DNA of 64,000 nt from positions 19,552 through 83,551 of the IMG/VR virus record IMGVR_UViG_3300020180_000015, one strand, 5' to 3'. This stretch comes from a virus. Below, piece by piece: positions 13,751 through 39,590 of this stretch. The position numbers and the translations under genes are program-made. Under the pieces are notes generated by a model. The model worked only from the letters and a program-made list of their open reading frames with translations, made no database searches and was not told where the DNA came from. Numbering within the stretch: position 1 is the stretch's first letter; each line of letters begins with the position of its first letter.

Positions 13751-14171
13751 CAAGAAGCTGAAGGCACTCCGCGAGATGGCGGGATGCCGCGCCGCCATCG
13801 GTACGCTGCAAGAAACCGTGCCGCGCCGTACCTCGGAGTTTAGTGACCTGACGGCACAGGCGCTGGCGCTTGATTCTGAACTTGCCAAGTCTGTGTCCGA
13901 ACTGCTCAATCATATAGACAGCACGGATGCGGCGCACTCGAAACTGATCTTTATGTTGGTGATGCGGCAGGGCGAACTGCGGATGGTCATCGACGATCTT
14001 GCGCCGGATCATCCGATCCTAACTCGCGTCCCTCGTTTATGGATCAACCAACTGGTCGACCACCTGCGAGAAGGGCTGATCGAGATTGCCGAACTCGACG
14101 GCAATGCGGCTGCTATAGCACGAGCGCGGTTGGATACACAGCCGCTGCCAGAGGACGCCGACGAGTCTTAA
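13743..14171 (+). CDS. Hypothetical helical protein
   Basis: Overlapping operon gene, GGAG RBS. Confidence 0.55.
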   Translation: MDNKKLKALREMAGCRAAIGTLQETVPRRTSEFSDLTAQALALDSELAKSVSELLNHIDSTDAAHSKLIFMLVMRQGELRMVIDDLAPDHPILTRVPRLWINQLVDHLREGLIEIAELDGNAAAIARARLDTQPLPEDADES

Positions 14172-14253
14172 GTGCCGCTGGGTCGTGTGTTGACCGACGC
14201 GCACGACCAGCCCATAATGTATCGTATAAAGAGTACAAAGCAACGAGGCGCAG

Positions 14254-14622
14254 ATGTTTAAGTATTATACGCCACAGAATATCCCGCACTTCGGCGAACG
14301 TCGCAGTGATCGGATCGTCGTAATCCCGATCAACAGCGGCAATGTCGTCGGCAAATGCTGGATTGCGGAATGGGCGCATATTCAGACTGAAATAGCACGA
14401 CGCGGGCAAGACGATCTCGGACTCGTCGTGATGGATGCAAAGGCGGCACTGATCGCCGCGACCTACGATGACGCAGCTGCAATGTGGGAACCAATTGTTA
14501 TCAAGTCCGACAGTGGGGCAGTGGTCGCGGTGGTGATGACGCTCGACTGCTTCACGGTCGGACTTGATTGGTTGAAATATCGACTCGAAGAAACGGGCGA
14601 ATGGGGTATCGCAGTCAAGTAG
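14254..14622 (+). CDS. Hypothetical protein
   Basis: Promoter TTGACC-N17-CATAAT at 14190-14218; GAGG RBS. Confidence 0.55.
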   Translation: MFKYYTPQNIPHFGERRSDRIVVIPINSGNVVGKCWIAEWAHIQTEIARRGQDDLGLVVMDAKAALIAATYDDAAAMWEPIVIKSDSGAVVAVVMTLDCFTVGLDWLKYRLEETGEWGIAVK

Positions 14623-14696
14623 CAGTACCGCCCACAGCGAAGCGCCGATACGCCGAGCGGGGCAATAACACATCGATGGCTTAAGCAATTGAGGAC

Positions 14697-14966
14697 ATGG
14701 CAGTGTCACAGATCACGATTCAATACTCCCAAACAGAAACAGAACAACCAGAAAAATGCTGTCAGGATTGCGGTGCGCCGCTGCGGATGGATTGGTTTCC
14801 ATCCTTCTTGGGTCGACACGGATATTGGTCGGCTACGTGCGATACGACGACGTGCGAACTCGAAGGAGTCACGCTGTCTGTTCATCGCTTCCCTCTGCCT
14901 GAAGAAACGGCAGAGAGCTACCGCCGCCCGTTTCGCAACCGAAAGGACAACCACAGCGCCGGGTAG
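14697..14966 (+). CDS. Small zinc-ribbon protein
   Basis: CQDCG...CDTTTC; GAGGA RBS. Confidence 0.5.
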   Translation: MAVSQITIQYSQTETEQPEKCCQDCGAPLRMDWFPSFLGRHGYWSATCDTTTCELEGVTLSVHRFPLPEETAESYRRPFRNRKDNHSAG

Positions 14967-15081
14967 TCTGTTAGCTCTTTCACCCGACCAATTTACCCTG
15001 ACCGGTAAATTGGTCGACCATGGGGAACGCCCGCCGCAAGGCGTCGTGCTTGGACAAATTAACTAGGGAAAGGGGATCGCC

Positions 15082-15510
15082 GTGAAATCGTTGTTCGCAC
15101 AGGTTGTGCAGTTAGATCGTCTGGTTGCCATCGTCGCCGACCAGCACATCGCTACGGCAGGGGTCGATTTGAAAGTCGTCCACGTCATTATTCTCGCCGC
15201 GTTGTATGAGCGCAACGGACGCCGCGCCAAAGACTTGGCAGCCGCCATCGGGTTTCCGGCAACATCGTTCACGCCGAGTCTTGATAGTGCTGAATCCGAC
15301 GGATTGGTTGAGCGACGCGCAGATAAACTGGATCGCCGCGCCGTCAATATTTATCTGACGCCGAAAGCCGAAGCGATGCGCGATCAGGTGCTGGCGGCGT
15401 ATGCCGCCATGGAGCATGGCATCCGTATCCAGATCGACGACTTCGTGTCGAGACTGCCCGAAATGACCGACCACGAGCTCGCCATTGCACTTGCGCGAGT
15501 GCTGGCATAA
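15082..15510 (+). CDS. MarR-family transcriptional regulator
   Basis: AKDLAAAIG...GLVERR..DRRAVNIYLTPK. Confidence 0.85.
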   Translation: MKSLFAQVVQLDRLVAIVADQHIATAGVDLKVVHVIILAALYERNGRRAKDLAAAIGFPATSFTPSLDSAESDGLVERRADKLDRRAVNIYLTPKAEAMRDQVLAAYAAMEHGIRIQIDDFVSRLPEMTDHELAIALARVLA

Positions 15511-17446: not shown

Positions 17447-18742
17447 ATGTCAGACGATCCACGCATCAAACATTCAAAGCTGAAGGACTTCACCCAAGAC
17501 CTTGAAAACGCGAATTTAGGCAGCGAACGCGGACAGCAAATGATCGAGGACTCCTTCCGAGAGTTAGGCGCGGCGCGTTCGATGGTCGCGGATAAGAACC
17601 GCACACTGATCGCCGGAAACAAGTCCGCCGAGGCAGCCATCGCCGCTGGACTTGAGGACGTGATCGAAGTTCACACGACGGGTAAAGAGGTGGTGATCGT
17701 CGTGCGTGACGACGTTGACTTGCTCGATGAAAGCGACTCGAAGGGTCGCCAGATCGCGTATCGAGATAATCGCTCCGCACAGGTATCCATGACGTGGGAC
17801 GCAGCGCGGTTGCTCGTCGACATGAAAACCCGTCCGGAAATCCTAGCAAAGATATTCACAGCCGATGAATTAAAGGTGTTGATCGCTCCGGCACTCGAAG
17901 CTGGCACAGGGGATGTGCCGGATGCCAAACTGGATCAGATCGAAGAAATTCATAAGAAGTGGGGCGCGAAAGAAGGCGACCTATGGCTCATCGAGTCAAA
18001 GTCGGGTTTCGGCGATCACCGGGTATTTTGCGGCGACTCGACCAAAGATGAGGATGTGCGCCTCGCCATCGGCGCACTGCATCCGAATCTGTGCATGACC
18101 GACCCGCCGTATGGAGTTGATTACGATCCGGCATGGCGCGAGGATATGGACATCGCACGCGGCGGCACGGGCGGCAACCACGCGATTGGCAAAGTACAGA
18201 ACGACGATATTGTCGACTGGAGCGCCGCGTATCGCCTGTTCCCCGGCAACGTGCTGTATGTGTGGCACGCCGGAGTATTCGCGCCGGAGGTCGGTATTAG
18301 CATCAAGGCGAGTGGATTTGATATTCGCGGTCAGATCATCTGGCGGAAACAAGCGCCTGTGATGAGCCGGGGCGCGTACCACTGGCAACATGAGCCAGCA
18401 TTCTACTCAGTCCGGCATGGGCAGACGGCGAACTGGAAAGGGGATCGCAAACAATCCACGATCTGGGACATCGCCAACATGAGCGCCGTGCAGGGCAGCG
18501 CCGAAGATAAACCGACGGGGCATTCTACCCAAAAACCCGCATCTGTTTTTACCCGATGCTTCCTGAACCACTCCCTTGCATCAGATGCAATCTACGATCC
18601 GTTTCTCGGATCGGGGACGGCGATTGCTGCGGCTGAGTCGTTGAGCCGCATCGGGTGCGGGTTGGAGATCGATCCTCGCTATGTTTCGTTGGTCATGGAA
18701 CGACTGTCGGATATGGGATTATCACCGAGGAGAGGCGAATGA
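17447..18742 (+). CDS. ParB-like N-domain plus DNA adenine methyltransferase
   Basis: LIAGN ParB-like segment; TDPPY, HSTQKP, DPFLGSGT; typical position upstream of terminase. Confidence 0.88.
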   Translation: MSDDPRIKHSKLKDFTQDLENANLGSERGQQMIEDSFRELGAARSMVADKNRTLIAGNKSAEAAIAAGLEDVIEVHTTGKEVVIVVRDDVDLLDESDSKGRQIAYRDNRSAQVSMTWDAARLLVDMKTRPEILAKIFTADELKVLIAPALEAGTGDVPDAKLDQIEEIHKKWGAKEGDLWLIESKSGFGDHRVFCGDSTKDEDVRLAIGALHPNLCMTDPPYGVDYDPAWREDMDIARGGTGGNHAIGKVQNDDIVDWSAAYRLFPGNVLYVWHAGVFAPEVGISIKASGFDIRGQIIWRKQAPVMSRGAYHWQHEPAFYSVRHGQTANWKGDRKQSTIWDIANMSAVQGSAEDKPTGHSTQKPASVFTRCFLNHSLASDAIYDPFLGSGTAIAAAESLSRIGCGLEIDPRYVSLVMERLSDMGLSPRRGE

Positions 18743-22159: not shown

Positions 22160-22362
22160 TGATCATACGGTACTCGCCCGACTTCGCGGGTATCGTTGGC
22201 GGCAGCGCACAGATAGCCCTACCGTGATGCCGTGTCGGGCAGTTGGACTTGCCGCAGTTTATGTCTGCTGCGCCCGGTTTGATAAAGACAATAGCCCCGT
22301 GCGAGCGAGCGCTCCCCCGGTTTCACTACGGGATAGCACTCTGCTTGTCGGGGTTTTTATTT
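22160..22362 (+). ncRNA. Candidate ~200-nt structured ncRNA
   Basis: TATAAT at 22152, several complementary segments, ends GGGGTTTTTATTT; no convincing ORF. Confidence 0.35.
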
Positions 22363-23411: not shown

Positions 23412-25667
23412 ATGCCATATATGGCAATTGAACGAGACGGTAAATTTATGGTGTATGTGAGGGGCGCCGACAACAAACCCAAAGGGCGATCTCGCGGCAC
23501 TTACACAGGCGATGATGCAAAGGATCAGGCGGCGGAGCAGTTAGATAACCTACGGACTGTCGAACGCGGCGAACAGCAAAACCGCCGTCGCTACAATGGG
23601 CTTGATCTAGCTCCGCCTTCCGGCGTCCGTGCTGCGTGTCAGCGAGGATTAGATCAAGAAGGCGGCACGGCGCTTCAGCGGCAAGCTGCCGAACTGATCA
23701 CGTCCGGTTCGCAGTTATCCGTTCTCGCGATTCGCACTGTTGCGCGGCAGTTTAATAAGTCGCGCAAGTCGGGTGACGACCAACAGCATCTGCTGCGCGG
23801 CGGCGATGCTGGCGCGGTGTGGTTCAAGACCATGGCGGCGGCACTCGATAATATGGACAGCGGCGTGAAGTCGGCAAAAGAAGTTGGTGAAGGCACGGAA
23901 CGACGCCGTGAACGCGATGGGCCGTCCGGCATGGGCTTCGGCAGCGGCGGCGACTTTCGTCCGATTGATTATGACGCCTTGTCTCGTGAGTCATCGCGCC
24001 TGCAAAGGATGATGACAAGCGGTGATCTCGGACTCCCTGCGGCGTTGGGCGCGTTTGAACGAACCGTGCGCGAGGCGGCGAGTTTTGCAGGGGGTAGCAA
24101 ACGACAGGCACTGTCCCGCGCCGCTGATGACATCGAGAAAGGCATTCCCCTGTTCAAGTCGCCGATGCCGTCCGATGATAACTCATCAGCAATGTCGCCG
24201 CACGAACGCGGCATCGCAATGTTGAAGAATGCATTCGTGGCAATACGAATCGTGGCGAGTGCAAAGGCGATCACGGCATCCAACGCAAGCGGCGCGGGGT
24301 TTAGCATACCGCCGGATGACGACGGACTAGGAGCGACGGTGAGTATGCGTAAGGGCATGGAGGTTTACGTGAAGTCCACTGGCGAGATCGGCACGGTGCG
24401 CGGCGTGAAGCGAGTCGGCGACGGCGTGCGTTACAAGGTCGAGACGCCGAGCGGGTTTACGATCTGCAGCCGCAAGGGGATTATGTCGGCACGGGCGAAG
24501 GCGATCAAAGAAGCTGCCGTTGCATGTGACACGATCCAGAAGGCAGCGGACGCTGAAACAGTCGATGCCGAAACAGTGAAAGCGGCGCTCAAGGCACTGG
24601 CGACCAGTTGGAAGATCGCCGATATGTCGACCCGCGAGAAGATGCAAACATCCTATGATGCGCTGATCGCCGCCCGTGCGATCCTGACGGCGTCGCCGGA
24701 TGAATCAGACTTGGCGAAAAAGTATCTGGCGATGGCGAAAGCAGGACTCGATCCTATTGCCGAAGAAGGTGTGAAGGCATCTTACGACAATGGGGTGAAG
24801 CGGGCTGTCCAACTCCTGCAGATGGTTCGGGCGAGTTTGTCAGTCGATTCTCAACCGCAGCGATTGGGGAACGTGCGACTTTTAAACAAAGTCGACGGAC
24901 TCCTTTCCCGATTGCTCACGACGGCATCGCCGAACGGACAGCGCGTGTTTCGCGGCATCCAAGAAACGCTGTCGCGGTTCACGGATAACGAGGAGTCGTG
25001 GTACCCGGCACAGACGCCGATCAGCGAGTGGGAGCAGGGGATCAGTGATGCTTTGCGGCAGATGATAGCATTTGCCGGGGGGAGGGGCATTAAGGCGGAA
25101 GGTGAAGTCGAAAAGATGCGCGAAGTATTGATCAGCGCGTACAACGACAGGATCATCACCGGAGATGAAAGTAAACAGCTTGATCAACTGCGTCACCAGA
25201 CGAAAAACCCGATCGGCGACCTCGATTACTTTGATTATTCGATCAACGCATACGGCACGAAACCTGAATATCTCGCCAAACGTAAAAAGGTACTGCAGCG
25301 ACTCAACAGCATTATTCGGAAGCGCAATCGCCTAGTCGACGAGATCAATCAGCGGGCGGCAAAACCTCAGACAAAGAATACGGCGGAAGCGGCGCTGAAG
25401 GCACTGCAGGACGTGGTCGGCGAGATCACGACCGCTGGAGCATCAACCGATGACCAGCAGGAGCGAATGCTTGAAGCCGTCGATACGTTACATCTGTACG
25501 CCGCCGCCGCCGGAGAAAAGGCGATCAAGAGCCTTGAGCCACTCGAAGAGGCGTTATACGCAGAACCTGACGACGGACTGAGCGAGTGGCAGCAGCGGGT
25601 TGTCAGCATGATCGAAGATTACCAAGCGAAGATCGCCAGTGAACCAGAACCAGAAGCGGTGACCTAA
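23412..25667 (+). CDS. Multidomain head-associated polyprotein-like protein
   Basis: Upstream of portal; small phage head-associated domains, an SH3/KOW-like segment and helical modules separated by GVKS, GVKA, GIKA, ALKA, AIKS. Confidence 0.65.
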   Translation: MPYMAIERDGKFMVYVRGADNKPKGRSRGTYTGDDAKDQAAEQLDNLRTVERGEQQNRRRYNGLDLAPPSGVRAACQRGLDQEGGTALQRQAAELITSGSQLSVLAIRTVARQFNKSRKSGDDQQHLLRGGDAGAVWFKTMAAALDNMDSGVKSAKEVGEGTERRRERDGPSGMGFGSGGDFRPIDYDALSRESSRLQRMMTSGDLGLPAALGAFERTVREAASFAGGSKRQALSRAADDIEKGIPLFKSPMPSDDNSSAMSPHERGIAMLKNAFVAIRIVASAKAITASNASGAGFSIPPDDDGLGATVSMRKGMEVYVKSTGEIGTVRGVKRVGDGVRYKVETPSGFTICSRKGIMSARAKAIKEAAVACDTIQKAADAETVDAETVKAALKALATSWKIADMSTREKMQTSYDALIAARAILTASPDESDLAKKYLAMAKAGLDPIAEEGVKASYDNGVKRAVQLLQMVRASLSVDSQPQRLGNVRLLNKVDGLLSRLLTTASPNGQRVFRGIQETLSRFTDNEESWYPAQTPISEWEQGISDALRQMIAFAGGRGIKAEGEVEKMREVLISAYNDRIITGDESKQLDQLRHQTKNPIGDLDYFDYSINAYGTKPEYLAKRKKVLQRLNSIIRKRNRLVDEINQRAAKPQTKNTAEAALKALQDVVGEITTAGASTDDQQERMLEAVDTLHLYAAAAGEKAIKSLEPLEEALYAEPDDGLSEWQQRVVSMIEDYQAKIASEPEPEAVT

Positions 25668-28636
25668 TGGGGTTGTTAAACGAGATAGGGCAAGTTTACG
25701 GCGACGGCGTGAAGGCTGCTGTGAAGTCGCTGAGTAATCTACCGCGCCGTCCGGCGGCGACACGCTACCAGCGTCAAGCGCCGTTTGTGCGCGGCGCTCC
25801 TGCTCGGCGGCAGCAGTCGTTGATCATCAATGACGAACTGCAGCACGCGGTCAAGTCCGTCTCGTATAGCGATTTCATAAACGACTTCATAAATGCCGAA
25901 GGTACGAACTGGCGGAACAATTACTCCGAACAGCAGATCGAGTCGGCGTATGCCACGTCGGTTTACCTGTTTGCGGCGATGCGCCGCGTGGCGAACCTGT
26001 TCTCCATGGTGCGCTTTGTCGCCGAAGTCGACAAGGGCGGCGATTGGCAGCGGCTGCCAGATACTCACCACTTAAATAAAATATTCACAGTCGCCGGCGC
26101 ACGGTTCATGTACCACCTGTATATGTATTACGCGCTCTACGGCACGACGCTTGTTTATAAACGCAAGACCCGTAAGGCACTCGCCGCCTACCAGCGTGGC
26201 AAACTAATCAGCGGGTATTTGGAGGGCGGGATCGCAGGATTATCGGTCATCCCTAATTCGCGCTGGGAGATATTCGAGGACGAGTATCAGGGCGAGATTC
26301 AGGGATTTAGCCTGAACGAGCCGATGGGCGAACTGAAGGCGGGGATGCGGGATCGGGACGAGTTCGTGTACATCCACGACTTTGACCCGCGCTTTTTGAA
26401 CAACGGCATCTCGATGGTAAGTCTAGCGATCAACAACGCGATCACCAATGCCGCCATCGCACGATGGGCGGCACACTACTTTATGTCCGGCGCTATGCCG
26501 CTGCTGCTCATCAGCACTGAAGAAGACCCGGCGATGCAGACCGAAGCGGACTTGATCCGGCAAAAGAATTTTATCGAGCGGGCGTGGCAAGGGTTGTTCG
26601 GCAAGTTTGCGATGCGTGCCGTATTCACGGATCGCAAACTGAACGTGCAGCAAGCCGGGATTGATGCCGAGAAAGTTCAAGCACCGGATTTGAACCGTGA
26701 CTCATTGAACGCCATCGCTTCGGTATTCCAGATCGCGCCGGATTTAATCGTCCCGCCCGAAGGCGGCAGCGACAACGCACGGCATAAGTTCCTCATGATG
26801 GATGCATTTCGTTCGGCGATCCTGCCTGTCGCATGGCAGATGACAGACGTATTCAATGCCGACATGGGGCTGCACGATGCGAACGTGCGGATCGTGGTCG
26901 CAGAAGATGAGATCACGGCGCTGGATGCAGATCGCGCCGACAATGCGACCACTGAAACAGGGCTGTTTACCTCCGGTATCCAGACGTTCGGGGAAACCCG
27001 TGACCAGATGCGCTTCAAGCCATCGCCGGGACTCAAGCTGCTGGAGAGCTTTATCAATATCAATGGGCGGCTTCAGTCGGTTGAGCGAGTCCTGCGGGAT
27101 GACCAACTGCCAAGCGACTTTATCATGCAGTACGCGCCGACTGCGTGGGATGCCGGGATCGTCAAGCGTTCCGAAGTGCGAAAGCTAATGTTTAATCTGC
27201 CGACGCCTGCCGCTGAGGACGGGTACAAGTATGAAGTAGTGCCAGACCCATCGGCGGGCGGCGGCTTCGGCGGAGGTGGTACGCCGTCACCAGAACCGCC
27301 TGAAAACGGCGGAGGTTCGCTTCCTGCGGGTGATCGTCCCCAACTGCCCGGCAAAACGCCACAGGGCGGCACGGTCGCGCCGACGGTCGCTCCGACGGAC
27401 GGTGACAAGGCAGTCGATCAAAATCGTCAAATTGTCGATTTTGCCGGGATCGAAAGCGCCGAGACGGATGGGCGGATCATCCCGGTGACTCCGGTTGCGC
27501 GTTTGACGGCGAGTGCCACACAGCAGCATTCGGCATGTGCGTTACTCATGATCGGCGACGACCCACTGATCCAGACGGTTGCCACGCAGTTAGAGATCAT
27601 GCTCGACGGCGTCCCTGCTATTTGGCAAGACCCTGAAACGTATCACTGTACCCTCGTTTACAGTGATCATGCGACGGACGACCAGATCGCGGCGGCGCAG
27701 AAACTTATGCCGGAATACATGCCGGACATCACTTTGCGCGTGGATGGGTTGATCACGTTTGAGACGCAGGATGGTTTGTGCATCGCGCTGCGTGTGGATA
27801 CGACGCAGGGATTGGAAGGGTTGCAGAGCCACACTCGCACGTCGTTCAGTAACGCGGCGCTGCCGATTTCGCCTTACTCTGCTTCGGGGGCGTATATGCC
27901 ACATATCACGCTGTGCTATGTGCCGGACGAGACTCCCGTGCCGGAATTCACCTGCGCGATCAGCGTCGTGCCGCAGTGTATCCAAGTCACCCGCGACGAG
28001 TACAAAGTGGTCTTTGAACTGCCGTCGATCCGCGAGGCAGCGGGGGACGACCCGAACCACGCGCACAACCGACAGATGCTGATCGACGACGCCGAGATTA
28101 CACGGCAGTTCGTGCAGTCGGCGCTGCGGACATGGCGCGATACGGGGGAGCCGGGTCCCGGCTTGAGCGACGCGGTCAAGAACGTGGTACGTGAAGCACT
28201 GGCGCAGGATGCGGCGATGGCGTGGGACGCCGCGCTGAAGGCGTGCGATGACGGGTACTTTGACGACAGCGCCGATTTGACGGACGGGCATAATCCGATA
28301 TTGGGTGTAATGGCAAAGGCGAAACTAGCGATGCAGGAAACACCTGAAGCCGAACTGGATGCGTGGGAACGCTCCGCGTTCCGTAATGGGGTATCGAAGG
28401 CGGCGAGTCGGTTTGAAGTGAACCTGCTACCATTGGCGCTTGAGCAGACGGTGAAGGCGAGACTTGCCGATGTCAAAACGAAAACGGAAATCAAACTCGT
28501 GTTCAATGACGCCCGTGCCGCACTCGCCGAGAGTGCGCCGAAGGCAGTGGACGAGGACTCGCTGATGGCATGGGCGGAACGGGTCGCCGGGATGGACGGG
28601 TTGGGCGACTTGCTCGACGATGACTTGACTTCCTAA
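25667..28636 (+). CDS. Portal protein fused to 2H phosphoesterase (Acb1-like)
   Basis: HK97-like portal N-half; Pro/Gly linker; YHCTLVYS (His at 27644) and PHITLCY (His at 27902). Confidence 0.85.
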   Translation: MGLLNEIGQVYGDGVKAAVKSLSNLPRRPAATRYQRQAPFVRGAPARRQQSLIINDELQHAVKSVSYSDFINDFINAEGTNWRNNYSEQQIESAYATSVYLFAAMRRVANLFSMVRFVAEVDKGGDWQRLPDTHHLNKIFTVAGARFMYHLYMYYALYGTTLVYKRKTRKALAAYQRGKLISGYLEGGIAGLSVIPNSRWEIFEDEYQGEIQGFSLNEPMGELKAGMRDRDEFVYIHDFDPRFLNNGISMVSLAINNAITNAAIARWAAHYFMSGAMPLLLISTEEDPAMQTEADLIRQKNFIERAWQGLFGKFAMRAVFTDRKLNVQQAGIDAEKVQAPDLNRDSLNAIASVFQIAPDLIVPPEGGSDNARHKFLMMDAFRSAILPVAWQMTDVFNADMGLHDANVRIVVAEDEITALDADRADNATTETGLFTSGIQTFGETRDQMRFKPSPGLKLLESFININGRLQSVERVLRDDQLPSDFIMQYAPTAWDAGIVKRSEVRKLMFNLPTPAAEDGYKYEVVPDPSAGGGFGGGGTPSPEPPENGGGSLPAGDRPQLPGKTPQGGTVAPTVAPTDGDKAVDQNRQIVDFAGIESAETDGRIIPVTPVARLTASATQQHSACALLMIGDDPLIQTVATQLEIMLDGVPAIWQDPETYHCTLVYSDHATDDQIAAAQKLMPEYMPDITLRVDGLITFETQDGLCIALRVDTTQGLEGLQSHTRTSFSNAALPISPYSASGAYMPHITLCYVPDETPVPEFTCAISVVPQCIQVTRDEYKVVFELPSIREAAGDDPNHAHNRQMLIDDAEITRQFVQSALRTWRDTGEPGPGLSDAVKNVVREALAQDAAMAWDAALKACDDGYFDDSADLTDGHNPILGVMAKAKLAMQETPEAELDAWERSAFRNGVSKAASRFEVNLLPLALEQTVKARLADVKTKTEIKLVFNDARAALAESAPKAVDEDSLMAWAERVAGMDGLGDLLDDDLTS

Positions 28637-28691
28637 TCTTTCGAGTTAAGATGTGTATCAATAGTGTGCTGAAAAGCGAAAGGGAAATACG

Positions 28692-29093
28692 ATGGTCACA
28701 AAACGGCAATTGGCAATCAAGGCGGCACGAGTGCGTAGCCTGAAAACTGCGCCAGTCACGGCGGCATGGTTTAATCGTGCGGGCATCACGGTTGCGCGGA
28801 TGCAGCGCACATGGGGTGCGCGGCAGGGGCTGGTGTGGGCGGATTTCGTTAGTATCTGGTCTCCAATTAACGGATACAGAAACGACCTACCGCCGAGCAT
28901 CGTTCGTGCAGCCGGTCAACTGTACGACGTGGCTGCAAATCTGAACGGACATCGCGCAGAGACCCAACCGCAGGGTTGGATGCCGGGGATGGTATTCCCG
29001 GCGGAAACCAGAAACTGGAAGCGGGTAGACGGATTACTCGCTCGGTTGAAGGCGGAACTTGCCGATGCCGCCGACACACTATCAAGCGGTTAA
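28692..29093 (+). CDS. Leader-tagged cassette protein (divergent member)
   Basis: Promoter CTTGACTTCC-TAATCTTTCGAGTTAAGAT like 36136; leader MVTKRQLAIKAA. Confidence 0.65.
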   Translation: MVTKRQLAIKAARVRSLKTAPVTAAWFNRAGITVARMQRTWGARQGLVWADFVSIWSPINGYRNDLPPSIVRAAGQLYDVAANLNGHRAETQPQGWMPGMVFPAETRNWKRVDGLLARLKAELADAADTLSSG

Positions 29094-29170: not shown

Positions 29171-29959
29171 ATGGACGACATAGCGGTCAAAGGCATCATC
29201 GGCGATAAGGTACGCGACATCATCCGGCGGTTGGGGCAGGGGCTGAGGAACATCCTTCCCCGCGAACCAACGCCAGAGGAGTCGGCGCGTTACCGCGAAA
29301 GTCGGCGACCCAGGTCGGAAGTCGAAGCCGAACAGCGGCAACAAGTCGCCATCGAAAAGATACGCCGATACCAAGTGGCGTTCAATGAGCAGGTGACGGC
29401 ACTCGCCGCCCAGCTTGCCGCGAAGGACATCTCGCCGCAGGAGTTTCGTGCCATGATGCTAATCGAGATTCGATTCAACCTACTCACGGCGGCGGCGGCA
29501 GCGGCGGGGAGTATCGGAAGTCTATCACCGATGGATTTAAACCGCGTCGATATGAGGGTGCGGGAACAGGCGCGGTTTCTCGACAACTGGATCGCGCAGA
29601 TCGAACGGCAGCCGGATAAAGACTGGTCGCCGGGTGCGCTCGGCGTTCGCGCGCGGATGTACGCGGGCAGCGCCGAAACCCTAGCCGCCGAAACAGTCGA
29701 CAAGAACGTGCATCGGGAGTTTCCCGATTTGCCGTTTTACCCGGCACAAAAAACGGCGTGCCGTGCGAACTGCCGCTGCCGCTGGGAGTGGCGGAGCGTG
29801 GATCGAGAGAAGGGCGACGCCGACGTGTACTGGCTGCTGGGAGTGGCGGAGCATTGCAAACAGTGCCTTGCCCGCGCCGATGTGTTCTCGCCGATGCAAA
29901 TTAGAAACTGGAAGATCGTCAACATGCCGGCGGATATTCGTGACTTAATCGTAGGGTAG
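29171..29959 (+). CDS. MuF/SPP1 gp7-like minor head protein
   Basis: P....C..NCRC and HC..C motifs; follows portal. Confidence 0.7.
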   Translation: MDDIAVKGIIGDKVRDIIRRLGQGLRNILPREPTPEESARYRESRRPRSEVEAEQRQQVAIEKIRRYQVAFNEQVTALAAQLAAKDISPQEFRAMMLIEIRFNLLTAAAAAAGSIGSLSPMDLNRVDMRVREQARFLDNWIAQIERQPDKDWSPGALGVRARMYAGSAETLAAETVDKNVHREFPDLPFYPAQKTACRANCRCRWEWRSVDREKGDADVYWLLGVAEHCKQCLARADVFSPMQIRNWKIVNMPADIRDLIVG

Positions 29960-30898: not shown

Positions 30899-30969
30899 TC
30901 GTGCCTTGCTGTCTTGCCCTGAATTGTAGTACTCTGGCAGAGTAGGCTCACACGTAGTTAACGTCCCAG

Positions 30970-30999
30970 CCCGCATGGAAACTTCCATGCGGGTTTTTT
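30970..30999 (+). terminator. Intrinsic terminator just upstream of the protease-capsid gene
   Basis: CCCGCATGGAA..TCCATGCGGG-TTTTTT. Confidence 0.75.
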
Positions 31000-31016
31000 G
31001 TTTTAGTCGAGGTGTC

Positions 31017-33365
31017 GTGACCGGAATTCTGCTCCATAAGGCGGGCGGCGCAATCAAATCCGTACAGCGCGGTAACGGGCTAATCGAGGGGTATTTGATC
31101 TCCTTCGGCGGACCCGCGGATACCGATCTGGAGGGGCAGTGGTTCACGCCACGCACAGACATCCGTGAGGACTATTTCCGCGACTATCCGATGCTGTTTC
31201 ATCACGGCATGGATTCGGCAGTGGGGTTAGACCCCATTGGGCGGATTTTGCGGGTCGACAAAGACAACGTGGGATGGCACGCCAAAGCCCAGCTTGATCT
31301 TCACGATCAATACGGGCGGCAGGTGAGTGAACTGCTTGATCTTTACCCGTTGGGGTGGAGTAGCGGTTCAGTGGATCACCTTGTCGTAATTGCGGACACT
31401 GGCGAAATTCTGGTGTGGCCCCTCTTTGAGGGGACTGTCACGCCGACGCCGGCGCAGTCTCGCAAAACGTCGGTGCGGGCTTTGAAAGCGGTGTTAACTC
31501 GCGGTCAAACGGGAATTCCGAGAGGGCTTCGTGCTAGAGCGGATGCCGGGATCGCTGCCAATCTCGAAAGCAGTGGAGGAACGGTCATGGCGTTGAGCGC
31601 GCGTAGAAGCACGGCTCAGTACGTGAAGAGTGTACTTAAGAAGGCGGGGTTTAAACCGACCCCCGAAGAAGAGATGGCGATTGCTGCCGATCTCGAAAGC
31701 AGTGGAGGAACGGTCATGGCGTTGAGAGCGCGTAGAAGCACGGTTCAGTACGTGAAGAGCGTACTCAAGAAGATGGGGTTTAAAGCGACCCCCGAAGAAG
31801 AGATGGCGATTGCTGCCGATCTCGAAGTACAGGATGCGATGCTGTCGGATGATGAGTTTGGCGATGCAACGTTGGCGGATGATGAGTTTGACGATGCAAT
31901 GATGTCGGATGATGAGTTCGGCGACGCGATGCTGTCGGATGATGAGTTCGGCGACGCGATGATGTCGGATGATGAGTTCGGCGACGCGATGCTGTCGGAT
32001 GATGAGTTCGGCGACGCGATGCTGTCGGATGATGAGTTCGGCGACGCGATGCTGTCGGATGATGAGTTCGGCGACGCGATGCTGTCGGATGATGAGTTCG
32101 ATCCGGCGATGCTGAGTTACCGCAAGTCGCGCCGCCGGACAGCGCGTTCGCGTCAGAAGTCGATGACTGTGGATCAGTCGCAGGAGATCAACGCCATGAG
32201 GCGGCGCATCAATGCGTTGGAATTGCAAGAAGCGCCGGGGGAGCGGATGATCGGTATGAAATCACTGCGTGTGACACGAGATCGGGCGGATCAGCCCGGT
32301 GCGTACAAGTCGGTATTCACCAAGTACATACGCTTCGGTGAGTTCCGCATGAACGACGATGATCGCCGTACTCTGCGAAAAGGGCAGGTGGATTACGGTG
32401 CAGCCGACCGGGTGACGGGCGTCAAGGCTTTGACATCCAGCACATCGGGCAGCGTCGGGTTTTCCGTGCCGGACGACTTCATTGCGGAATTGAACCGCAA
32501 CATCATGGTTGATGCAGTGACGGCGAATGAGTGTAAGCGCCGCACCACGACCAGCGATACGGTCTTGATCCCCGATCTGCAGACGACTGATGCTCGCCGT
32601 GCGTATGCCGGGCGCACCACATGGATCGGCGAAACTGCCGCAAACCAAGCGGAGACGGATGTGACGCCGATCACAATGGGGCAGATTCAACTGCCGATTC
32701 ACGTCTTACTCGTCTCGACCGTCGCATCACTTTCCAGTCTCGAAGATAGCGCGTTCGATTTACAGGCGTACATCACTGAGGCGTTCAGCGAAATGATCGC
32801 CATCGAACACGAAGAATTGATCTGGTCGGGCAACGGGCAGGGGAAGATGCGCGGCATCGTCACCGATACTCGCGTGACTGGCAGCGCGTCGACGGGTGTG
32901 TCCAGCGTGAGCGGATTCATCGCCAGCGGCAGCGCGGCGTCCATTGCCGACGCCGACAAAATCCGGTCATTGACCATGCACTTGCCGCCTCAATACCGGG
33001 CGCGTGCCAAGTGGTACATGAACAGCAACACGGCAAACATCATCATGCAGTTGAAGGACGCGAACGGGCGTTATCTGTGGGGCGATGAACAGGGTTTGAA
33101 TCAGGGTGCGCCAACCACACTCCTGAACAAGCCGATTGTGTTCAATGAATGGGCATCGGACGTGGCGGCGGGAGCATTCCCGATCTTACTCGCCGATCTC
33201 AGTCGTGGGTACACCATCGCTAATCGTGTGGAATTCAGCGTCCGCCGCTTTGATGACAGCACCTATGCGGTACAAGACAACACGCTCGTGTTGGGGCGTG
33301 CGCGTATGGGCGGCATGGTCACACAGCCCATTGCTATCAAGGCACTGAAGATCGCCGTCAGCTAA
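31017..33365 (+). CDS. Prohead protease-scaffold-major capsid protein fusion (HK97 fold)
   Basis: IEGY...D.EG..F...LFHH...WSSG..E.TVT..PA protease; VKALTSS..GFSVP, MN, LKDANGRYLW, LLNKPIV capsid; GTG start after GAGGTG. Confidence 0.92.
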   Translation: MTGILLHKAGGAIKSVQRGNGLIEGYLISFGGPADTDLEGQWFTPRTDIREDYFRDYPMLFHHGMDSAVGLDPIGRILRVDKDNVGWHAKAQLDLHDQYGRQVSELLDLYPLGWSSGSVDHLVVIADTGEILVWPLFEGTVTPTPAQSRKTSVRALKAVLTRGQTGIPRGLRARADAGIAANLESSGGTVMALSARRSTAQYVKSVLKKAGFKPTPEEEMAIAADLESSGGTVMALRARRSTVQYVKSVLKKMGFKATPEEEMAIAADLEVQDAMLSDDEFGDATLADDEFDDAMMSDDEFGDAMLSDDEFGDAMMSDDEFGDAMLSDDEFGDAMLSDDEFGDAMLSDDEFGDAMLSDDEFDPAMLSYRKSRRRTARSRQKSMTVDQSQEINAMRRRINALELQEAPGERMIGMKSLRVTRDRADQPGAYKSVFTKYIRFGEFRMNDDDRRTLRKGQVDYGAADRVTGVKALTSSTSGSVGFSVPDDFIAELNRNIMVDAVTANECKRRTTTSDTVLIPDLQTTDARRAYAGRTTWIGETAANQAETDVTPITMGQIQLPIHVLLVSTVASLSSLEDSAFDLQAYITEAFSEMIAIEHEELIWSGNGQGKMRGIVTDTRVTGSASTGVSSVSGFIASGSAASIADADKIRSLTMHLPPQYRARAKWYMNSNTANIIMQLKDANGRYLWGDEQGLNQGAPTTLLNKPIVFNEWASDVAAGAFPILLADLSRGYTIANRVEFSVRRFDDSTYAVQDNTLVLGRARMGGMVTQPIAIKALKIAVS
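31551..31826 (+). repeat. 129-bp tandem duplication containing an internal RBS and ATG
   Basis: GGAGGAACGGTCATG with in-frame ATGs at 31587 and 31716. Confidence 0.85.
31833..32117 (+). repeat. 30-bp coding tandem repeat, 9.5 copies (DAMLSDDEFG)
   Basis: Directly visible. Confidence 0.95.
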
Positions 33366-34988: not shown

Positions 34989-36140
34989 ATGCTGACCTAT
35001 GCTACGCTGCAGACATTTGCCAAAGTCAAAGGGATCAGCCTCGATCTATTATCTGACGAGGATGGCAGAATGCTGCGGGAATACCTGCGGCGTGGCACAC
35101 GCGAGATTGATCGGATCACGCGGCGGCGATTCTTTCCGTTTCACATGACTCGCCGTTACAGCATCCCGATGACTTATGCCGATCTACGTAACCGCGCACT
35201 GATCCACGAGGACTTACAACTCGACGCCGATCTCATGGAAGTCGTCCGGGTACAGGTGGGTACTGGCACCGTGATCGACTCCGGCGAGGATGTGCCGCTC
35301 GGCGGACTGACGGCGATTGCGACGACCTTCACTGCAACTGATGCCGATGGGCTTGACGATCAGAACATTGATCGCTTTGCCGTCGGGGTCGTACTGCAGA
35401 TCAAGAACGAGCAATGCGTTATCCGCGCACGGGATACTGGTACCAACGTCGTCACCTTAGAGCGCGGCGCATTCGGCACAATAGCCGCAGCCCACGCCGC
35501 CGGAGTGCAAATCTCCAAGAATGTCCTGACGACACTCGAACCGGGGATCGACTTTCATCTGCTCGACTTCAACATCAACCCGAAGTTTGCTATCCGGCTT
35601 GTGTTTCCGAACACGTGGGCGGGTCGCTATACAGGCGTGGCGTGGAGGTCGCGTTATCCTCAAATCTATGTCACAGGCTTTTGGGGGTTTCACGATCAGA
35701 TGCAGGAGGCGTGGGTCAATACCAACGACCCCATTCCTTCGGGCGGGATTACTGCCGTTGCGACGACATGGAATGCCCTCGCGGTGGATGGCACGGACGC
35801 CGCGAATGAGCTTCGCTTCCTTGTGGATCACCTGTACCGCGTCGAGAATGAATTGATGTGGTTGACGGCTGCCGACGATAACACTGGCGCGTTGACGGTG
35901 CTACGCGGGCAGCATGGCACACTCGTTGCCGCGCACGCCGCCGGAACACCAGTCTATCGATTCGCCGTGTTGGAGGATATTCGGAAGTCGTGCTTCAATA
36001 TCGCCAAGACGCTACGGGACTCTGACGACAGCGTTGGCGGGCGTCAGGGCGTGACCGAAGTGAGCGTTGGGGTGAAGATCACCTATGCCGCCGATGTTGC
36101 CGAAACATTGAAGCATTACATCCGGTCGTATATCGCTTGA
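34989..36140 (+). CDS. Head-tail adaptor with two inserted repeat domains
   Basis: YATL..., IDRITRRRF, VTGFWGF; repeats RG..GT..AAHAAG twice. Confidence 0.7.
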   Translation: MLTYATLQTFAKVKGISLDLLSDEDGRMLREYLRRGTREIDRITRRRFFPFHMTRRYSIPMTYADLRNRALIHEDLQLDADLMEVVRVQVGTGTVIDSGEDVPLGGLTAIATTFTATDADGLDDQNIDRFAVGVVLQIKNEQCVIRARDTGTNVVTLERGAFGTIAAAHAAGVQISKNVLTTLEPGIDFHLLDFNINPKFAIRLVFPNTWAGRYTGVAWRSRYPQIYVTGFWGFHDQMQEAWVNTNDPIPSGGITAVATTWNALAVDGTDAANELRFLVDHLYRVENELMWLTAADDNTGALTVLRGQHGTLVAAHAAGTPVYRFAVLEDIRKSCFNIAKTLRDSDDSVGGRQGVTEVSVGVKITYAADVAETLKHYIRSYIA

Positions 36141-36220
36141 CTTCCATAATCTTTTGAGTTAAGATGGCGTTAGATTGAGTGCATAATTCCCCGCGTTGCG
36201 GGGGGGGGTGGTGGTTGGAA
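36134..36220 (+). promoter_or_regulatory. Cassette 5' module copy 1 (promoter, operator, hairpin, G-tract RBS)
   Basis: TTGACT-N17-TAAGAT; CCCCGC-GTT-GCGGGG; near-identical to 36633 and 38946. Confidence 0.85.
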
Positions 36221-36583
36221 ATGAACAGACGGCAAAAAGTGGTAATCAAAGCGGCGGTCAAGCGGGGCGTAGCAAGAAGGTTAACTGATCCAGCAGTACG
36301 CTCGACACTAGTCGCTTTTATAACAAGAATTAGATCGTCGCTCCGACGTGGGTACGTGAATAGCGATGATTCAGAGGGGCTATACCTTTACATTATCAAA
36401 CAAGGAGATGATACACCCGAATTAGGTAGGATCTGGAGAGCGGCGTGGCGTATCCGTCTAATTGTCGCCGGCTCTCCGAGCGAGGGTCAAATGAAGGAAA
36501 TTAATGCCAAGTCGAAGGCGGTGATCGAGGCTTGGATGCGGACGTTGTTAGAGCATCTTCGCTCTACCAATATTCCTTCTTGA
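36221..36583 (+). CDS. Leader-tagged cassette protein 1
   Basis: MNRRQKVVIKAAVKRG; AT-richer than neighbours. Confidence 0.8.
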   Translation: MNRRQKVVIKAAVKRGVARRLTDPAVRSTLVAFITRIRSSLRRGYVNSDDSEGLYLYIIKQGDDTPELGRIWRAAWRIRLIVAGSPSEGQMKEINAKSKAVIEAWMRTLLEHLRSTNIPS

Positions 36584-36632
36584 TGCGCCGCAGCGGATTA
36601 CGGACATGGCTTATGACTCATCGTCGCTGATC

Positions 36633-36717
36633 CGCTTGACTTCCATAATCTTTTGAGTTAAGATGGCGTTGGATTGAGTGTATAATTCCCCGCGTTGCGG
36701 GGGGGAAGTGGTTGGAA
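36633..36717 (+). promoter_or_regulatory. Cassette 5' module copy 2
   Basis: Repeat of 36134-36220. Confidence 0.85.
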
Positions 36718-37062
36718 ATGAACAGACGGCAAAAAGTGGTAATCAAAGCGGCGATCAAATTGGGCGTAGAAAAAAGGTTAACTGATCCAGCAGTACGGTC
36801 AAGAATAGCCGCTTTTATAACAAGAATTAGATCATCACTTCAACGTGGTTACGTGAACAGCCAAGATTCAAATGGGTTGTTCGACTACGTTACCGCGCAA
36901 GCAGAAAATATTCCCGGAATGCGTGCGAGTTGGAAACCGGTGACACGTATTCAGCGAATTGTCGACGATCTTCCGGGTGATGGGCAGATGAAGGAGATTG
37001 ATGCCGAGTCGAAGGCGGGCATAGAAGTTGGGCTACGGGTGTTGTTAGAGTATCTTCGATAA
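36718..37062 (+). CDS. Leader-tagged cassette protein 2 (paralog of 1)
   Basis: MNRRQKVVIKAAIKLG; about 62% identical to protein 1 by hand alignment. Confidence 0.8.
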   Translation: MNRRQKVVIKAAIKLGVEKRLTDPAVRSRIAAFITRIRSSLQRGYVNSQDSNGLFDYVTAQAENIPGMRASWKPVTRIQRIVDDLPGDGQMKEIDAESKAGIEVGLRVLLEYLR

Positions 37063-37065
37063 CCA

Positions 37066-37572
37066 ATGTTACTTCTTGATGCGCCGCAGCGGATTGCGGA
37101 TATGGCTTATGACTCATCGTCGCTGATCCGCTTCACGGCGCACCTGCGGCAGTCGTCTCTCGACAGCCTCAAGCGTCCGGCGGTACTGGTGGAGGCGAAT
37201 GATGCCGAGTATCCGCCGACTGCGGCGGGGATCGAGAAACCGACTGAGACGTTTATCCTGTCGGTTGTCGGACAGAAATACGGCGTGGGTGCGCCGGGGG
37301 CAGCCGAACTCGAACTCCGGCAGGTCGCGCACGATTTGGCGGTGTACTTTTGGCGGCGGTCTCAGCTTCAATTCAGCAATCTGCGCGGCGCAAAGTCGAG
37401 CGAACTGCCGCCACTCACCGGAGTGGAGTCGAGCCGCCTAAGCCGCCGATCCTTTGTGACAACGGTCACACGAGGAGAGGACGGGGAGGGATCGTTTTGG
37501 GGGACAGAATTCACGCTCACGCTCACGCTGGCTGCGCGTGCGCTTGAAGTACTTGTGCCGAATAGGGGGTGA
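37066..37572 (+). CDS. Putative tail terminator/completion protein
   Basis: PAVLV, final strand FTLTL; position before tail tube. Confidence 0.55.
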   Translation: MLLLDAPQRIADMAYDSSSLIRFTAHLRQSSLDSLKRPAVLVEANDAEYPPTAAGIEKPTETFILSVVGQKYGVGAPGAAELELRQVAHDLAVYFWRRSQLQFSNLRGAKSSELPPLTGVESSRLSRRSFVTTVTRGEDGEGSFWGTEFTLTLTLAARALEVLVPNRG

Positions 37573-37749
37573 AATCAAATTCGTCAAATTGTCGAATTTG
37601 GGGGGGGCGGCATGAAACAGGTCAAGTTTGTCCTTATCCGCATTGCCGACTGGATCGACGATAAGGTACGCAGTCGGCGTACCTTGTTTCCTATCGCAAT
37701 CTAATTCATACTGTGATCATATCATCTAATCGTCCGCACGATATGTCCC

Positions 37750-37786
37750 GGCGCACCAGAGAAGTTCTCTGGTGCGCCGTTTTTTT
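37750..37786 (+). terminator. Intrinsic terminator upstream of major tail gene
   Basis: GGCGCACCAGAGA-agt-TCTCTGGTGCGCC-GTTTTTTT. Confidence 0.8.
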
Positions 37787-37803
37787 GGGGAAAGGGAACA
37801 ACA

Positions 37804-38691
37804 ATGGCACAAATTGAAAGTGGTGGGCAGCACGGCTTGTATAAGATCGTCGCCCAACTCGTCGGCAGCGACGGCGTGAGCTATGGGGTTGCGGGCAGCG
37901 GCATTGCCGCCGGATCGACCAGTAACGCTTACGTGCTGGATCATCCGGTGAATGCGAATATCACCCTGCCGGACGGGGCGACGATAGATTTCACCGCGTC
38001 CGACCAATGGGTCACATCGTACCAGTATGGTCCCAGTTCGATGGGATCATTCGACTTCGAGTTAGAAAATCTTGACTCGAATTTCATCGCACTCTGCACA
38101 GGAACACTGTCAGATCAGACAACGAATGCGCTCTGGACTGAATACACACATAATGCCCACGCCGGCAATTTCCCGCAGATCAGTCTGATGTTCATTTATC
38201 GCATCCAGTCGTTTGAAGCGGCGACATTCGGCGCGACCAAGTACCTGCACACGATCTACCCGCGCAATTGGGTGCGCCCGAAGAAAAACGCGCAGCAGTA
38301 TCAGCAAAAATCGACATCGCCGTATCAGGTGACTCCGGCGGGCGGCGCTCGGCATATCAACGGTCACTTGTTCGGCACGAACTTAGCGTCGACGGATAAC
38401 CGGGTGGTGAGTTACAACATCATCACCGACAACCCGCTGCACATGGCGGTCTGTCATGTTGATGGCTCACCCGAAAGCATTATCACGGCGTATCAGCCTG
38501 TGAGCAGCGCAGTCGGCACATCGTCGAGTACCCGCAATCAACTCGTCAAGTGGATATCGCCGACGGCGACGCTCGGCGTGGCGGATACGATCACGACAGC
38601 CACTGGAACGTTTGCAGTCGGCACGGCGCTCACCGTCGCATCCGGCAACATCGTAACCGTGCTGTACGAAACAGCCTACGTGCCAGTGTAG
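37804..38691 (+). CDS. Putative major tail (tube) protein
   Basis: Size, composition and synteny. Confidence 0.6.
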   Translation: MAQIESGGQHGLYKIVAQLVGSDGVSYGVAGSGIAAGSTSNAYVLDHPVNANITLPDGATIDFTASDQWVTSYQYGPSSMGSFDFELENLDSNFIALCTGTLSDQTTNALWTEYTHNAHAGNFPQISLMFIYRIQSFEAATFGATKYLHTIYPRNWVRPKKNAQQYQQKSTSPYQVTPAGGARHINGHLFGTNLASTDNRVVSYNIITDNPLHMAVCHVDGSPESIITAYQPVSSAVGTSSSTRNQLVKWISPTATLGVADTITTATGTFAVGTALTVASGNIVTVLYETAYVPV

Positions 38692-38697
38692 CCGCCG

Positions 38698-38952
38698 ATG
38701 GACGAGCGATTAGGGCAGCGAAATGAAACAGGGGCGGTGATCCAGTATCCCGCCCTGTACGCCAACGGTGCGCCGTTCACGCCGCGCACGGGCATCACAA
38801 CGGTAAAGGTGGGGCGGGGCTATTTTTACGCGCTGCAACCCGGCATTGCGGTCGCGCCGAACCACGCCGAACTGGGCGCGCTGGCTGCGCCGCCGCCGGA
38901 AGTGGACACCGATGAGGACGGGGATTATCCAGTCGCCGCCGAAATCGCTTGA
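38698..38952 (+). CDS. Hypothetical protein
   Basis: ORF whose stop codon is part of the cassette -35 box. Confidence 0.5.
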   Translation: MDERLGQRNETGAVIQYPALYANGAPFTPRTGITTVKVGRGYFYALQPGIAVAPNHAELGALAAPPPEVDTDEDGDYPVAAEIA

Positions 38953-39028
38953 CTTCCATAATCTTTTGAGTTAAGATAGCGTTAGATTGAGTGCATAATT
39001 CCCCGCGTTGCGGGGGGGGTGGTTGGAA
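38946..39028 (+). promoter_or_regulatory. Cassette 5' module copy 3
   Basis: Repeat of 36134-36220. Confidence 0.85.
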
Positions 39029-39475
39029 ATGAACAGTCGGCAAAAAGTGGTAATCAAAGCGGCGATCAAGCGGGGCGTGCCGCGCACGAAAGACATCACC
39101 AGCGGAATACAAGAGGGCGTCGGCTCGTTGATGAGACAGGTTAGTCGCGCATCCGAACAGGGCGGTAATCCTAATTCCCCGGCGACAGATGTTTACAACG
39201 CTGCCGATCTCTACAAATTGGCGCAGGGATCGCGGTCATTACTCATGCGAGTACAGAACCTCCCCGATGGGTTTCTCAAGGACAAGGTAGGCGGCTCTTT
39301 AAACAGAGCAAACGCCGGTTTGAATAAGCTGAGTGCCAAGCTCGGACAGCGAACTGCGGGCGAGGCGAGATGGCAGTTACAAAGTATCAGCTTGACTCTT
39401 GAGGATGCCGATAAATGGCTGGCTAATCACCGCGTTATAATTGAACGGCGGCGGCTAACCAATGTTACTTCTTGA
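39029..39475 (+). CDS. Leader-tagged cassette protein 3 (unrelated payload)
   Basis: MNSRQKVVIKAAIKRGV then non-homologous helical domain. Confidence 0.8.
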   Translation: MNSRQKVVIKAAIKRGVPRTKDITSGIQEGVGSLMRQVSRASEQGGNPNSPATDVYNAADLYKLAQGSRSLLMRVQNLPDGFLKDKVGGSLNRANAGLNKLSAKLGQRTAGEARWQLQSISLTLEDADKWLANHRVIIERRRLTNVTS

Positions 39476-39489
39476 TGCGCCGCTAACCC

Positions 39490-39513
39490 AACACCCCGCA
39501 CGGGGTGTTTTTT
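39490..39513 (+). terminator. Intrinsic terminator after cassette 3
   Basis: AACACCCCG-CA-CGGGGTGTT-TTTT. Confidence 0.7.
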
Positions 39514-39590
39514 GTTCCCCAGCGTGTCTTGCTGCGAGTGCCGCGTTGCGTAGACTGTAGGTATATTCAGCGTACAGGAGAAAACGGAAC

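Follow-up and report, generated by a model that had tools for sequence, protein, structure and literature searches.

The small internal proteins of T-even phages are encoded by polymorphic genes and use a capsid-targeting sequence (CTS) (Repoila et al. 1994; Mullaney and Black 1996; both as cited in the review PMC3012670). In phage P1, which lies outside the T4 group, the N-terminal ~30 residues of DarB suffice for capsid addressing (PMC9024508). Gene shuffling by small cassettes has been described separately, as the promoter-early stem-loop (PeSL) cassettes of T4-type phages (Arbiol et al. 2010, PMC2839356; PMC4122927) and as the morons of lambdoid and HK97-like phages (e.g., HK97 gp15, AF069529). 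Here, we describe a set of gene cassettes within the virion-gene region of an uncultured, HK97-type phage of microbial-mat origin. The window, meaning the whole stretch analyzed, comprises 64,000 nucleotides (nt), bases 19552-83551 of the 83.5-kb IMG/VR record IMGVR_UViG_3300020180_000015 (completeness estimate 97%), and positions refer to it unless the record is named. Each cassette carries one small payload gene (encoding proteins P1 to P4) that starts with a conserved N-terminal leader of 21 residues, and three of the four share a 5' module that includes the promoter and the leader codons. We read the set as self-expressed genes that are shuffled by recombination and whose N-terminal segment is a detachable tag for capsid addressing and cleavage, and we give this reading a probability of about 45%. 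The shuffling was observed in natural variants of the locus, and capsid addressing and cleavage are functions that we infer for the leader.

The locus resembles the T4 system (PMC3012670) in that a short conserved N-terminal leader stands on otherwise dissimilar small basic proteins, the gene bodies vary between close relatives, and the leader holds a motif at which the head protease of the phage presumably cuts, here a candidate motif. The two differ in their head proteins (a PF05065 capsid and a PF04860 portal here, not a gp23-like capsid with a gp21-type protease) and in the predicted cut, which falls after lysine here and after glutamate with the gp21-type protease of T4. The promoters here are also sigma-70-like, whereas those of T4 are late promoters, and only two or three payload families are seen in this genome. 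The likeness to PeSL cassettes lies in a repeated motif that joins the stop of the upstream gene to a strong promoter of sigma-70-like type, a polyC/polyG stem-loop, a Shine-Dalgarno sequence and a start codon, and in the way such motifs bound insertions, deletions and replacements between ~99%-identical phages. In contrast to PeSL, the last ~60 nt of the repeat here are coding and specify a conserved peptide. Its stem-loop is without a T-run, whereas the PeSL stem-loop acts as a terminator, and the repeat is found among the virion genes of a phage outside the T4 type, whereas PeSL cassettes lie in the hyperplastic regions of T4-type phages. Cassette 3 also resembles a moron, in that it has its own promoter and terminator and sits between virion genes, and a deviating composition, as in morons, is seen in the cassette 1-2 region. 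However, the copies here share one promoter and one N-terminal peptide, unlike morons. Morons are expressed from the repressed prophage of a temperate phage; here, no integrase was found among the open reading frames (ORFs) searched and no prophage relative in 185,579 representative GTDB genomes, but an ALP/ParM-like gene is present. DarB differs in that its signal is on one large protein and not on a family of shuffled small cassettes. The cassette system combines the principles of PeSL- or moron-like shuffling and of a putative T4-CTS-like tag, and it belongs to neither the T4 CTS nor the PeSL family because the phage is of the HK97 type.

There are exactly three copies of the 32-nt promoter core, CGC-TTGACT-N17-TAAGAT (36134, 36633 and 38946), with 0 expected by chance, and all 32 positions are identical among the copies, including those of the non-coding spacer. 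The 36-nt core of the leader codons also has three occurrences (36221, 36718 and 39029), with none expected by chance. These exact counts bear out the earlier note on this DNA, which had pointed to three near-identical modules of promoter, hairpin and leader. The whole module is ~139 nt long and runs from the promoter through the stem-loop and a G-rich ribosome site to the ATG and 19-21 conserved leader codons. At its 5' edge it takes in the final two codons and the stop codon of the ORF upstream; in copies 1 and 3, this TGA falls within the -35 hexamer. An ATTGAGTG box sits 8 nt downstream of the -10 hexamer, and the stem-loop (CCCCGC/GCGGGG) runs into the G tract. The fold of the 5' untranslated region (UTR) is no more stable than that of shuffled sequence, and the module RNA matched no Rfam family. 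A fourth promoter of this type, at 28625, has one deletion and one substitution compared to the other copies and drives the ORF at 28692-29093. The plus-strand promoters of the cassette type found in the genome number four, each lying directly before one of the four genes with a leader start. The coordinates are given in Table 1.

Table 1. Positions in the window of the cassette parts, of neighboring features and of the predicted capsid cut
Feature	Position	Strand	Remark
Predicted capsid maturation site, T-G-V-K485/A486-L	32418-32435	+	In register with HK97 gp5 K103/S104
Fourth, diverged cassette promoter	28625-28652	+	Directly after the portal gene; without stem-loop
P4	28692-29093	+	133 amino acids (aa), basic; start retains I9-K10-A11-A12 and R15
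5' module, copy 1	36132-36270	+	-35 TTGACT at 36137-36142 with the upstream stop inside; -10 TAAGAT at 36160-36165
ATTGAGTG box, module copy 1	36174-36181	+	
Stem-loop, module copy 1	36189-36203	+	G-run after it; ATG at 36221
P1 (payload gene 1)	36221-36583	+	120 aa, isoelectric point (pI) 11.1, predicted all-helical
Duplicated 5' end of gene 37066-37572	36566-36640	+	75 nt; duplication footprint; runs into module copy 2
5' module, copy 2	36631-36767	+	
P2 (payload gene 2)	36718-37062	+	114 aa, P1 paralogue
28-nt 3' stretch	37060-37087	+	Overlaps the P2 stop codon and the opening 22 nt of gene 37066-37572 (ATG called at 37066)
168-aa structural-module gene	37066-37572	+	P0006 gene inserted right behind it in a relative
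5' module, copy 3	38944-39078	+	Stop of upstream ORF 38698-38952 inside the -35 box
P3 (payload gene 3)	39029-39475	+	148 aa, basic; rare metagenomic family
28-nt 3' stretch at cassette 3	39456-39483	+	Not in the L005-like relative, where homology resumes at 39486
Terminator-like hairpin and T-run closing cassette 3	39490-39517	+	

The ATTGAGTG 8-mer occurs 10 times in the genome compared to 2.5 expected. It lies ~8-10 nt past the -10 hexamer in six sigma-70-like promoters, namely those of three cassettes (36174, 36673 and 38986) and of three units at the left end of the record (record positions 105, 2221 and 5503, minus strand), and is a possible transcript start or site of regulation. Two left-end units, at record positions 144 and 2260, repeat each other almost identically over more than 70 nt, and a terminator-like tail precedes each of them.

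Natural variants of the locus were found in metagenomes. One of them, L005, is a 3.8-kb contig that was located by a degenerate leader pattern and whose backbone is 99.0% identical to the window over 36178-37570 and 98.8% identical over 37579-39085. Between 37570 and 37579 it has a 431-nt insert that encodes P0006, a protein of 139 aa with a diverged leader but with neither a promoter of its own nor a stem-loop. In its cassette 3, the body is swapped from codon 20 onward for P0002, which is 34% identical to P3, and an extra tandem cassette follows downstream, with homology to the window that begins only at the ATTGAGTG box. Contigs from a second mat run, X2, contain the same 431-nt joint and the P0002 continuation, with homology resuming at 39486, just before the terminator. 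A third payload variant, on a contig in mat runs X1 and X2, matches the window over 39048-39090 only and has a different body after leader lysine 21 (K21). The upstream part of this contig has a P4-type ribosome site and start, and since the variant joins that start to 39048-39090, it links the start of P4 to the cassette leader. Three independent breakpoints lie right around K21. Near-identical phages thus vary at this locus by duplication, by insertion or deletion and by replacement of bodies, and the cassettes are shuffled.

The diversity behind the leader in L005, X1 and X2 is what the earlier note had asked to be looked for in relatives. Its proposal that payloads are exchanged through conserved flanks stood for the 5' side, where these relatives bear other bodies behind the leader, but a role for the 3' flank is weaker. 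In L005 and X2, the 5' breakpoint of the replacement is at the module end and the 3' breakpoint is at 39486, outside any module. Searches of IMG/VR with exact and degenerate DNA patterns of promoter plus leader gave no match, and protein-anchored locus searches found no related locus in IMG/VR or in GTDB genomes.

Cassettes 1 and 2 represent a tandem duplication of 497 nt, whose junction lies on the microhomology CGCTT(G/C)AC. The duplicated unit includes the 5' end of the downstream gene, where 36566-36640 corresponds to 37062-37136 with 93% identity. Payloads 1 and 2 are paralogous, as the earlier note had stated, with 62% amino-acid identity between them. Their bodies differ by 0.52 synonymous (dS) and 0.27 nonsynonymous (dN) substitutions per site (dN/dS 0.5), compared to a dS of 0.12 in the leader. 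The low leader dS and the identical promoter core, against a body dS of 0.52, suggest that the flanks have been homogenized or recently exchanged and that the bodies are evolving fast.

A 3' stretch shared by the cassettes had been taken for a second conserved flank, and the identical 28 nt are indeed present at 37060-37087 and 39456-39483, with 86% identity to 36564-36591. Counted as a pattern, the stretch occurs three times, identically at 37062 and 39458 and with 2 mismatches at 36566. At cassette 3 it gives P3 its final five codons, which the P3 homologues do not have. However, it is missing from cassette 3 of the relative, where homology starts from 39486. The cassette 3 copy appears to have been left behind when ectopic recombination took place with the cassette 1/2 locus. 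Since the stretch overlaps the first 22 nt of the gene at 37066-37572 as called, it may be a footprint of ectopic copying and not a designed boundary. The earlier label of that gene, tail terminator, is putative: Pfam, PHROGs and PDB sequence searches gave no match.

Payload 3 had been described as an unrelated protein on the common leader. The bodies are without detectable similarity: in BLASTP, the identity between P1 and P3 ends after residue 19 with no similarity beyond the leader, and profiles of P1/P2 and P3 with the leader removed gave a probability of 0.3%. However, the leader is also the N-terminal helix of the P3 family itself. In a search of 1.84 billion representatives, a profile of P3, P0002 and P0006 matched ~14 additional proteins (135-158 aa), every one of them on a short metagenome contig. 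The leader pattern in this family is two hydrophobic residues, x-x-A-K-A-x-G-V and then lysine, and K21 is the sole invariant column across 14 homologues. P1 has no homologue in a set of 5.8 billion proteins, and for both P1 and P2 homologues are confined to close relatives. P4 has an 83% identical orthologue with the same start in a JGI metagenome. A tblastn search with P3 against cultured phages gave no match, Pfam and PHROGs gave none for P1-P4 or their neighbors, and a PDB sequence search with a 295-aa neighbor protein was also without a match.

All the leader proteins are basic (pI 9.6-11.1). AlphaFold2, run for P3 on the family alignment, predicted a confident four-helix bundle after a flexible linker that bears K21, with a mean predicted local distance difference test score (pLDDT) of 90 and a pLDDT of 56-68 for the leader helix (residues 3-14) and the linker. 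P1 was predicted to be all-helical at a pLDDT of 70. In one copy of a relative, the first 12 codons of the leader have 4 synonymous and 2 conservative changes, and P0006 and P4 retain [VI]-K-[AS]-A and R15 through different codons. Because the peptide pattern is kept while codons change synonymously, we conclude from these comparisons that the N-terminal segment is under selection at the protein level. The leader was also considered as a Tat or Sec signal, which was rejected by inspection since it is too charged and the arginine pair is not conserved. Three longer homologues (P0013, P0016 and P0027) have two or three helical modules with an AKAxG[VM]..K-type junction before each, and P0027 equals P0014 with an extra ~105-aa module right behind the leader. 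Two other candidates, P0020 and P0021, were rejected as family members because they are low-complexity repeat proteins.

The head genes provide the context for the motif in the leader. The large terminase gene is at 19342, and the portal, encoded at 25667-28636, is of the HK97 type (PF04860). The ORF at 30975-33365 (796 aa) matches head-maturation-protease PHROGs at its N-terminus and the HK97-family capsid PF05065 at its C-terminus (residues 495-792). The cultured relatives of this capsid are all distant, at 32% identity or less. In HK97, gp5 is cut between K103 and S104, so that the mature protein begins at S104. PF05065 starts at residue 113 in HK97 gp5 and at residue 495 here, Pfam model position 2 being 9 residues past S104 and A486, respectively, and a proline lies 15 residues past the cut in both proteins. 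The presumed maturation site between K485 and A486 is well supported because the register on the Pfam model matches that of K103 and S104 in HK97.

This register supports the maturation site that the earlier note had presumed and to which it had likened the IK-A motif of the leader. Across the ORF set of the genome there are 37 copies of the tripeptide [VI]-K-[SA], 20 of them in four neighboring head proteins compared to 2.75 expected from composition. The proteins encoded at 22243 and 23412, the portal and the capsid ORF have 5, 6, 4 and 5 of them, where 0.5-1.0 would be expected in each. P1-P4 have one each, and no more than 13 fall in the ~21,600 residues that remain. An unbiased scan for tripeptides in the four head proteins put VKS, GVK, AVK and VKA on top once words of the acidic repeat were set aside. 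All leader variants retain the motif, as VIKA, VIKS, VVKA or AIKA. Upstream of the portal, the proteins of 360 and 751 aa are possibly polyproteins that undergo processing. The P4 gene is flanked by the portal gene and by the gene at 29171-29959, which comes next in the head module.

Some further features of the head genes and of the genome were noted. The portal is fused to a C-terminal 2',5'-RNA-ligase/2H-phosphoesterase-like domain (PF13563, residues 660-765), and the middle of the 796-aa ORF has a duplicated helical, scaffold-like segment followed by about ten copies of an acidic decapeptide. The gene at 29171-29959 encodes a 262-aa protein with a C-x-x-N-C-R-C-type cysteine motif that has no Pfam match and matches only a PHROG of unknown function; we presume that it resembles the MuF/SPP1 gp7-like minor head proteins. 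Terminator-like hairpins with T-runs are found inside the virion-gene region at 30968, 37749, 39490, 39845 and 41169, and HK97 is annotated likewise. Late transcription may need read-through or antitermination since these strong hairpins lie in that region. At least six DNA methyltransferase genes are present, in the window at 1589-5356 and 17447-18742 (four N6/N4 and one C5) and on L006 at 13823-15289 (N6/N4), which suggests a heavy investment against restriction. An actin-like ALP/ParM gene at 6704-7777 (PF17989, PF21522) may point to plasmid-like residence or to a part in intracellular positioning.

In the mechanism that we propose, the leader tag would bring proteins of the P1-P4 type into the prohead, and the lysine-specific head protease would cut it off behind the lysine of [VI]-K-[AS], behind K21 or behind both. 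Together with the DNA, the basic bodies would go on to enter the next host, like the T4 internal proteins, and the separate strong promoters would raise the payload dosage above that of the neighboring virion genes. This tag is proposed because a flexible N-terminal helix is under selection, the lysine at its junction is invariant and breakpoints lie there, the head-protease motif is kept, the bodies are basic and one copy follows the portal gene. That the leader proteins are packaged by such a tag seems to us possible, at slightly short of even chances. A more general version is a little more tentative: an HK97-type phage may load shuffled basic helical proteins into its capsid for co-injection by means of a lysine-cut N-terminal tag, with tag, promoter and 5' UTR forming a portable recombination module, the same motif punctuating the head "polyproteins" and the portal, and the head acting as a general cargo carrier. 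As part of that version, and held just as tentatively, the tag might work like the T4 CTS yet be independent of it.

Several observations weigh against a packaged tag. K10 is not kept in the homologues from other phages, and P1, P2 and P3 have no [VI]-K-[SA] at the K21 position. A protein of ~130 aa is expected to contain 0.15-0.2 copies of the tripeptide by chance, which is not rare, and the three main leaders are copies of one sequence. A hidden Markov model (HMM) of the leader found no similar segment in the scaffold, the portal or other head proteins, so a resemblance of the leader to scaffold or portal N-termini was rejected, and a version built without P4 missed P4. The structural comparison that the earlier note had suggested was of limited use: Foldseek searches of PDB and BFVD, and of ESM Atlas, returned only generic four-helix bundles, a fold that gives no functional clue. 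The -35/-10 type of the cassette promoters, together with the ATTGAGTG box, recurs in three units on the minus strand, close to the left end of the record, in an arm with ORFans, DnaB, a sliding clamp, a helicase and methylases. Since the promoter class is shared with this non-structural arm, early or constitutive rather than late expression of the cassettes is suggested. Also, no RNA run was listed among the public runs that contain the stretch.

These points could be explained if the cassettes were moron-like or early accessory genes whose products are not packaged. As add-ons with transcription of their own, they would be expressed by the host RNA polymerase at an early stage of infection, or from a prophage or plasmid form that resides in the host. 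Their products, a fast-evolving family of small, basic and helical proteins, would work in the cytoplasm, e.g., in host takeover, counter-defense or exclusion. The leader would then be a conserved family helix that binds a common partner, gained by P1 and P2 through recombination within the module. Such an account is possible but doubtful. It would fit the promoter class common to the non-structural left arm, the promoter (38949) and terminator (39490) of cassette 3, the lower G+C content of the cassette 1-2 region (0.50 across 36001-37000 compared to ~0.57 in the surroundings) and the conservation of the leader throughout the payload 3 family. HK97 also has a moron (gp15) and terminators at similar places of its late operon, and the ParM/ALP gene makes a plasmid-like resident state possible, but the lack of an integrase and of prophage copies in the searches given above speaks against a prophage form. 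What it leaves unexplained is why the sole invariant residue is a lysine in a flexible linker, why the payload breakpoints lie right around this residue, why all leader variants keep a tripeptide that the head proteins contain in ~7-fold excess, and why one copy lies between the portal gene and the gene at 29171-29959.

The remaining explanations give the conserved 5' part or the whole cassette another role. Small nucleic-acid-binding regulators, whose basic N-terminal helix would recognize the stem-loop or the ATTGAGTG box in their own and in further promoters or transcripts, for autoregulation or antitermination, would account for the basic character of all members and for a conserved stem-loop and box just upstream of the leader codons. 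However, P4 and P0006 have the leader without the stem-loop, no DNA- or RNA-binding fold was recognized, and the 5' UTR results given above do not favor an RNA target, which makes regulators improbable. The 5' part could also act as nucleic acid only, as a homology patch for recombination combined with a good translation-initiation region. The 100% identity of the non-coding promoter spacer in three copies agrees with this, as do a leader dS four-fold below the body dS, which points to gene conversion, and the start of homology of one L005 cassette at the ATTGAGTG box. Yet P0006, P4, the fourth L005 cassette and the 14 distant homologues keep the peptide pattern despite codon changes, and we consider a role as nucleic acid alone decidedly improbable. 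Finally, ~500-nt units with one small ORF each that are repeated in the genome recall transposon-like or homing mobile elements, such as the small mobile elements of mycobacteriophages. A search for transposon ends at the cassettes turned up no convincing terminal inverted repeats, so these were rejected; no payload matched transposase or nuclease families, and the junctions resemble those of microhomology or homologous recombination, one of them carrying a fragment of the neighboring gene. A mobile element is therefore highly improbable.

To our knowledge, capsid address tags have been established experimentally only in T4-type phages and P1. If the HK97-type phage described here does use a lysine-cut tag, loading the head with variable small proteins would be a convergent and general strategy of phages. 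The tag would then mark uncharacterized metagenomic proteins as virion cargo, likely as counter-defense or takeover factors that act in the first minutes of infection, and it would be a compact handle for bringing foreign proteins into HK97-type capsids or related shells. Regardless of the tag, the near-identical natural variants document that modules of promoter plus leader serve as recombination joints outside the T4 group.

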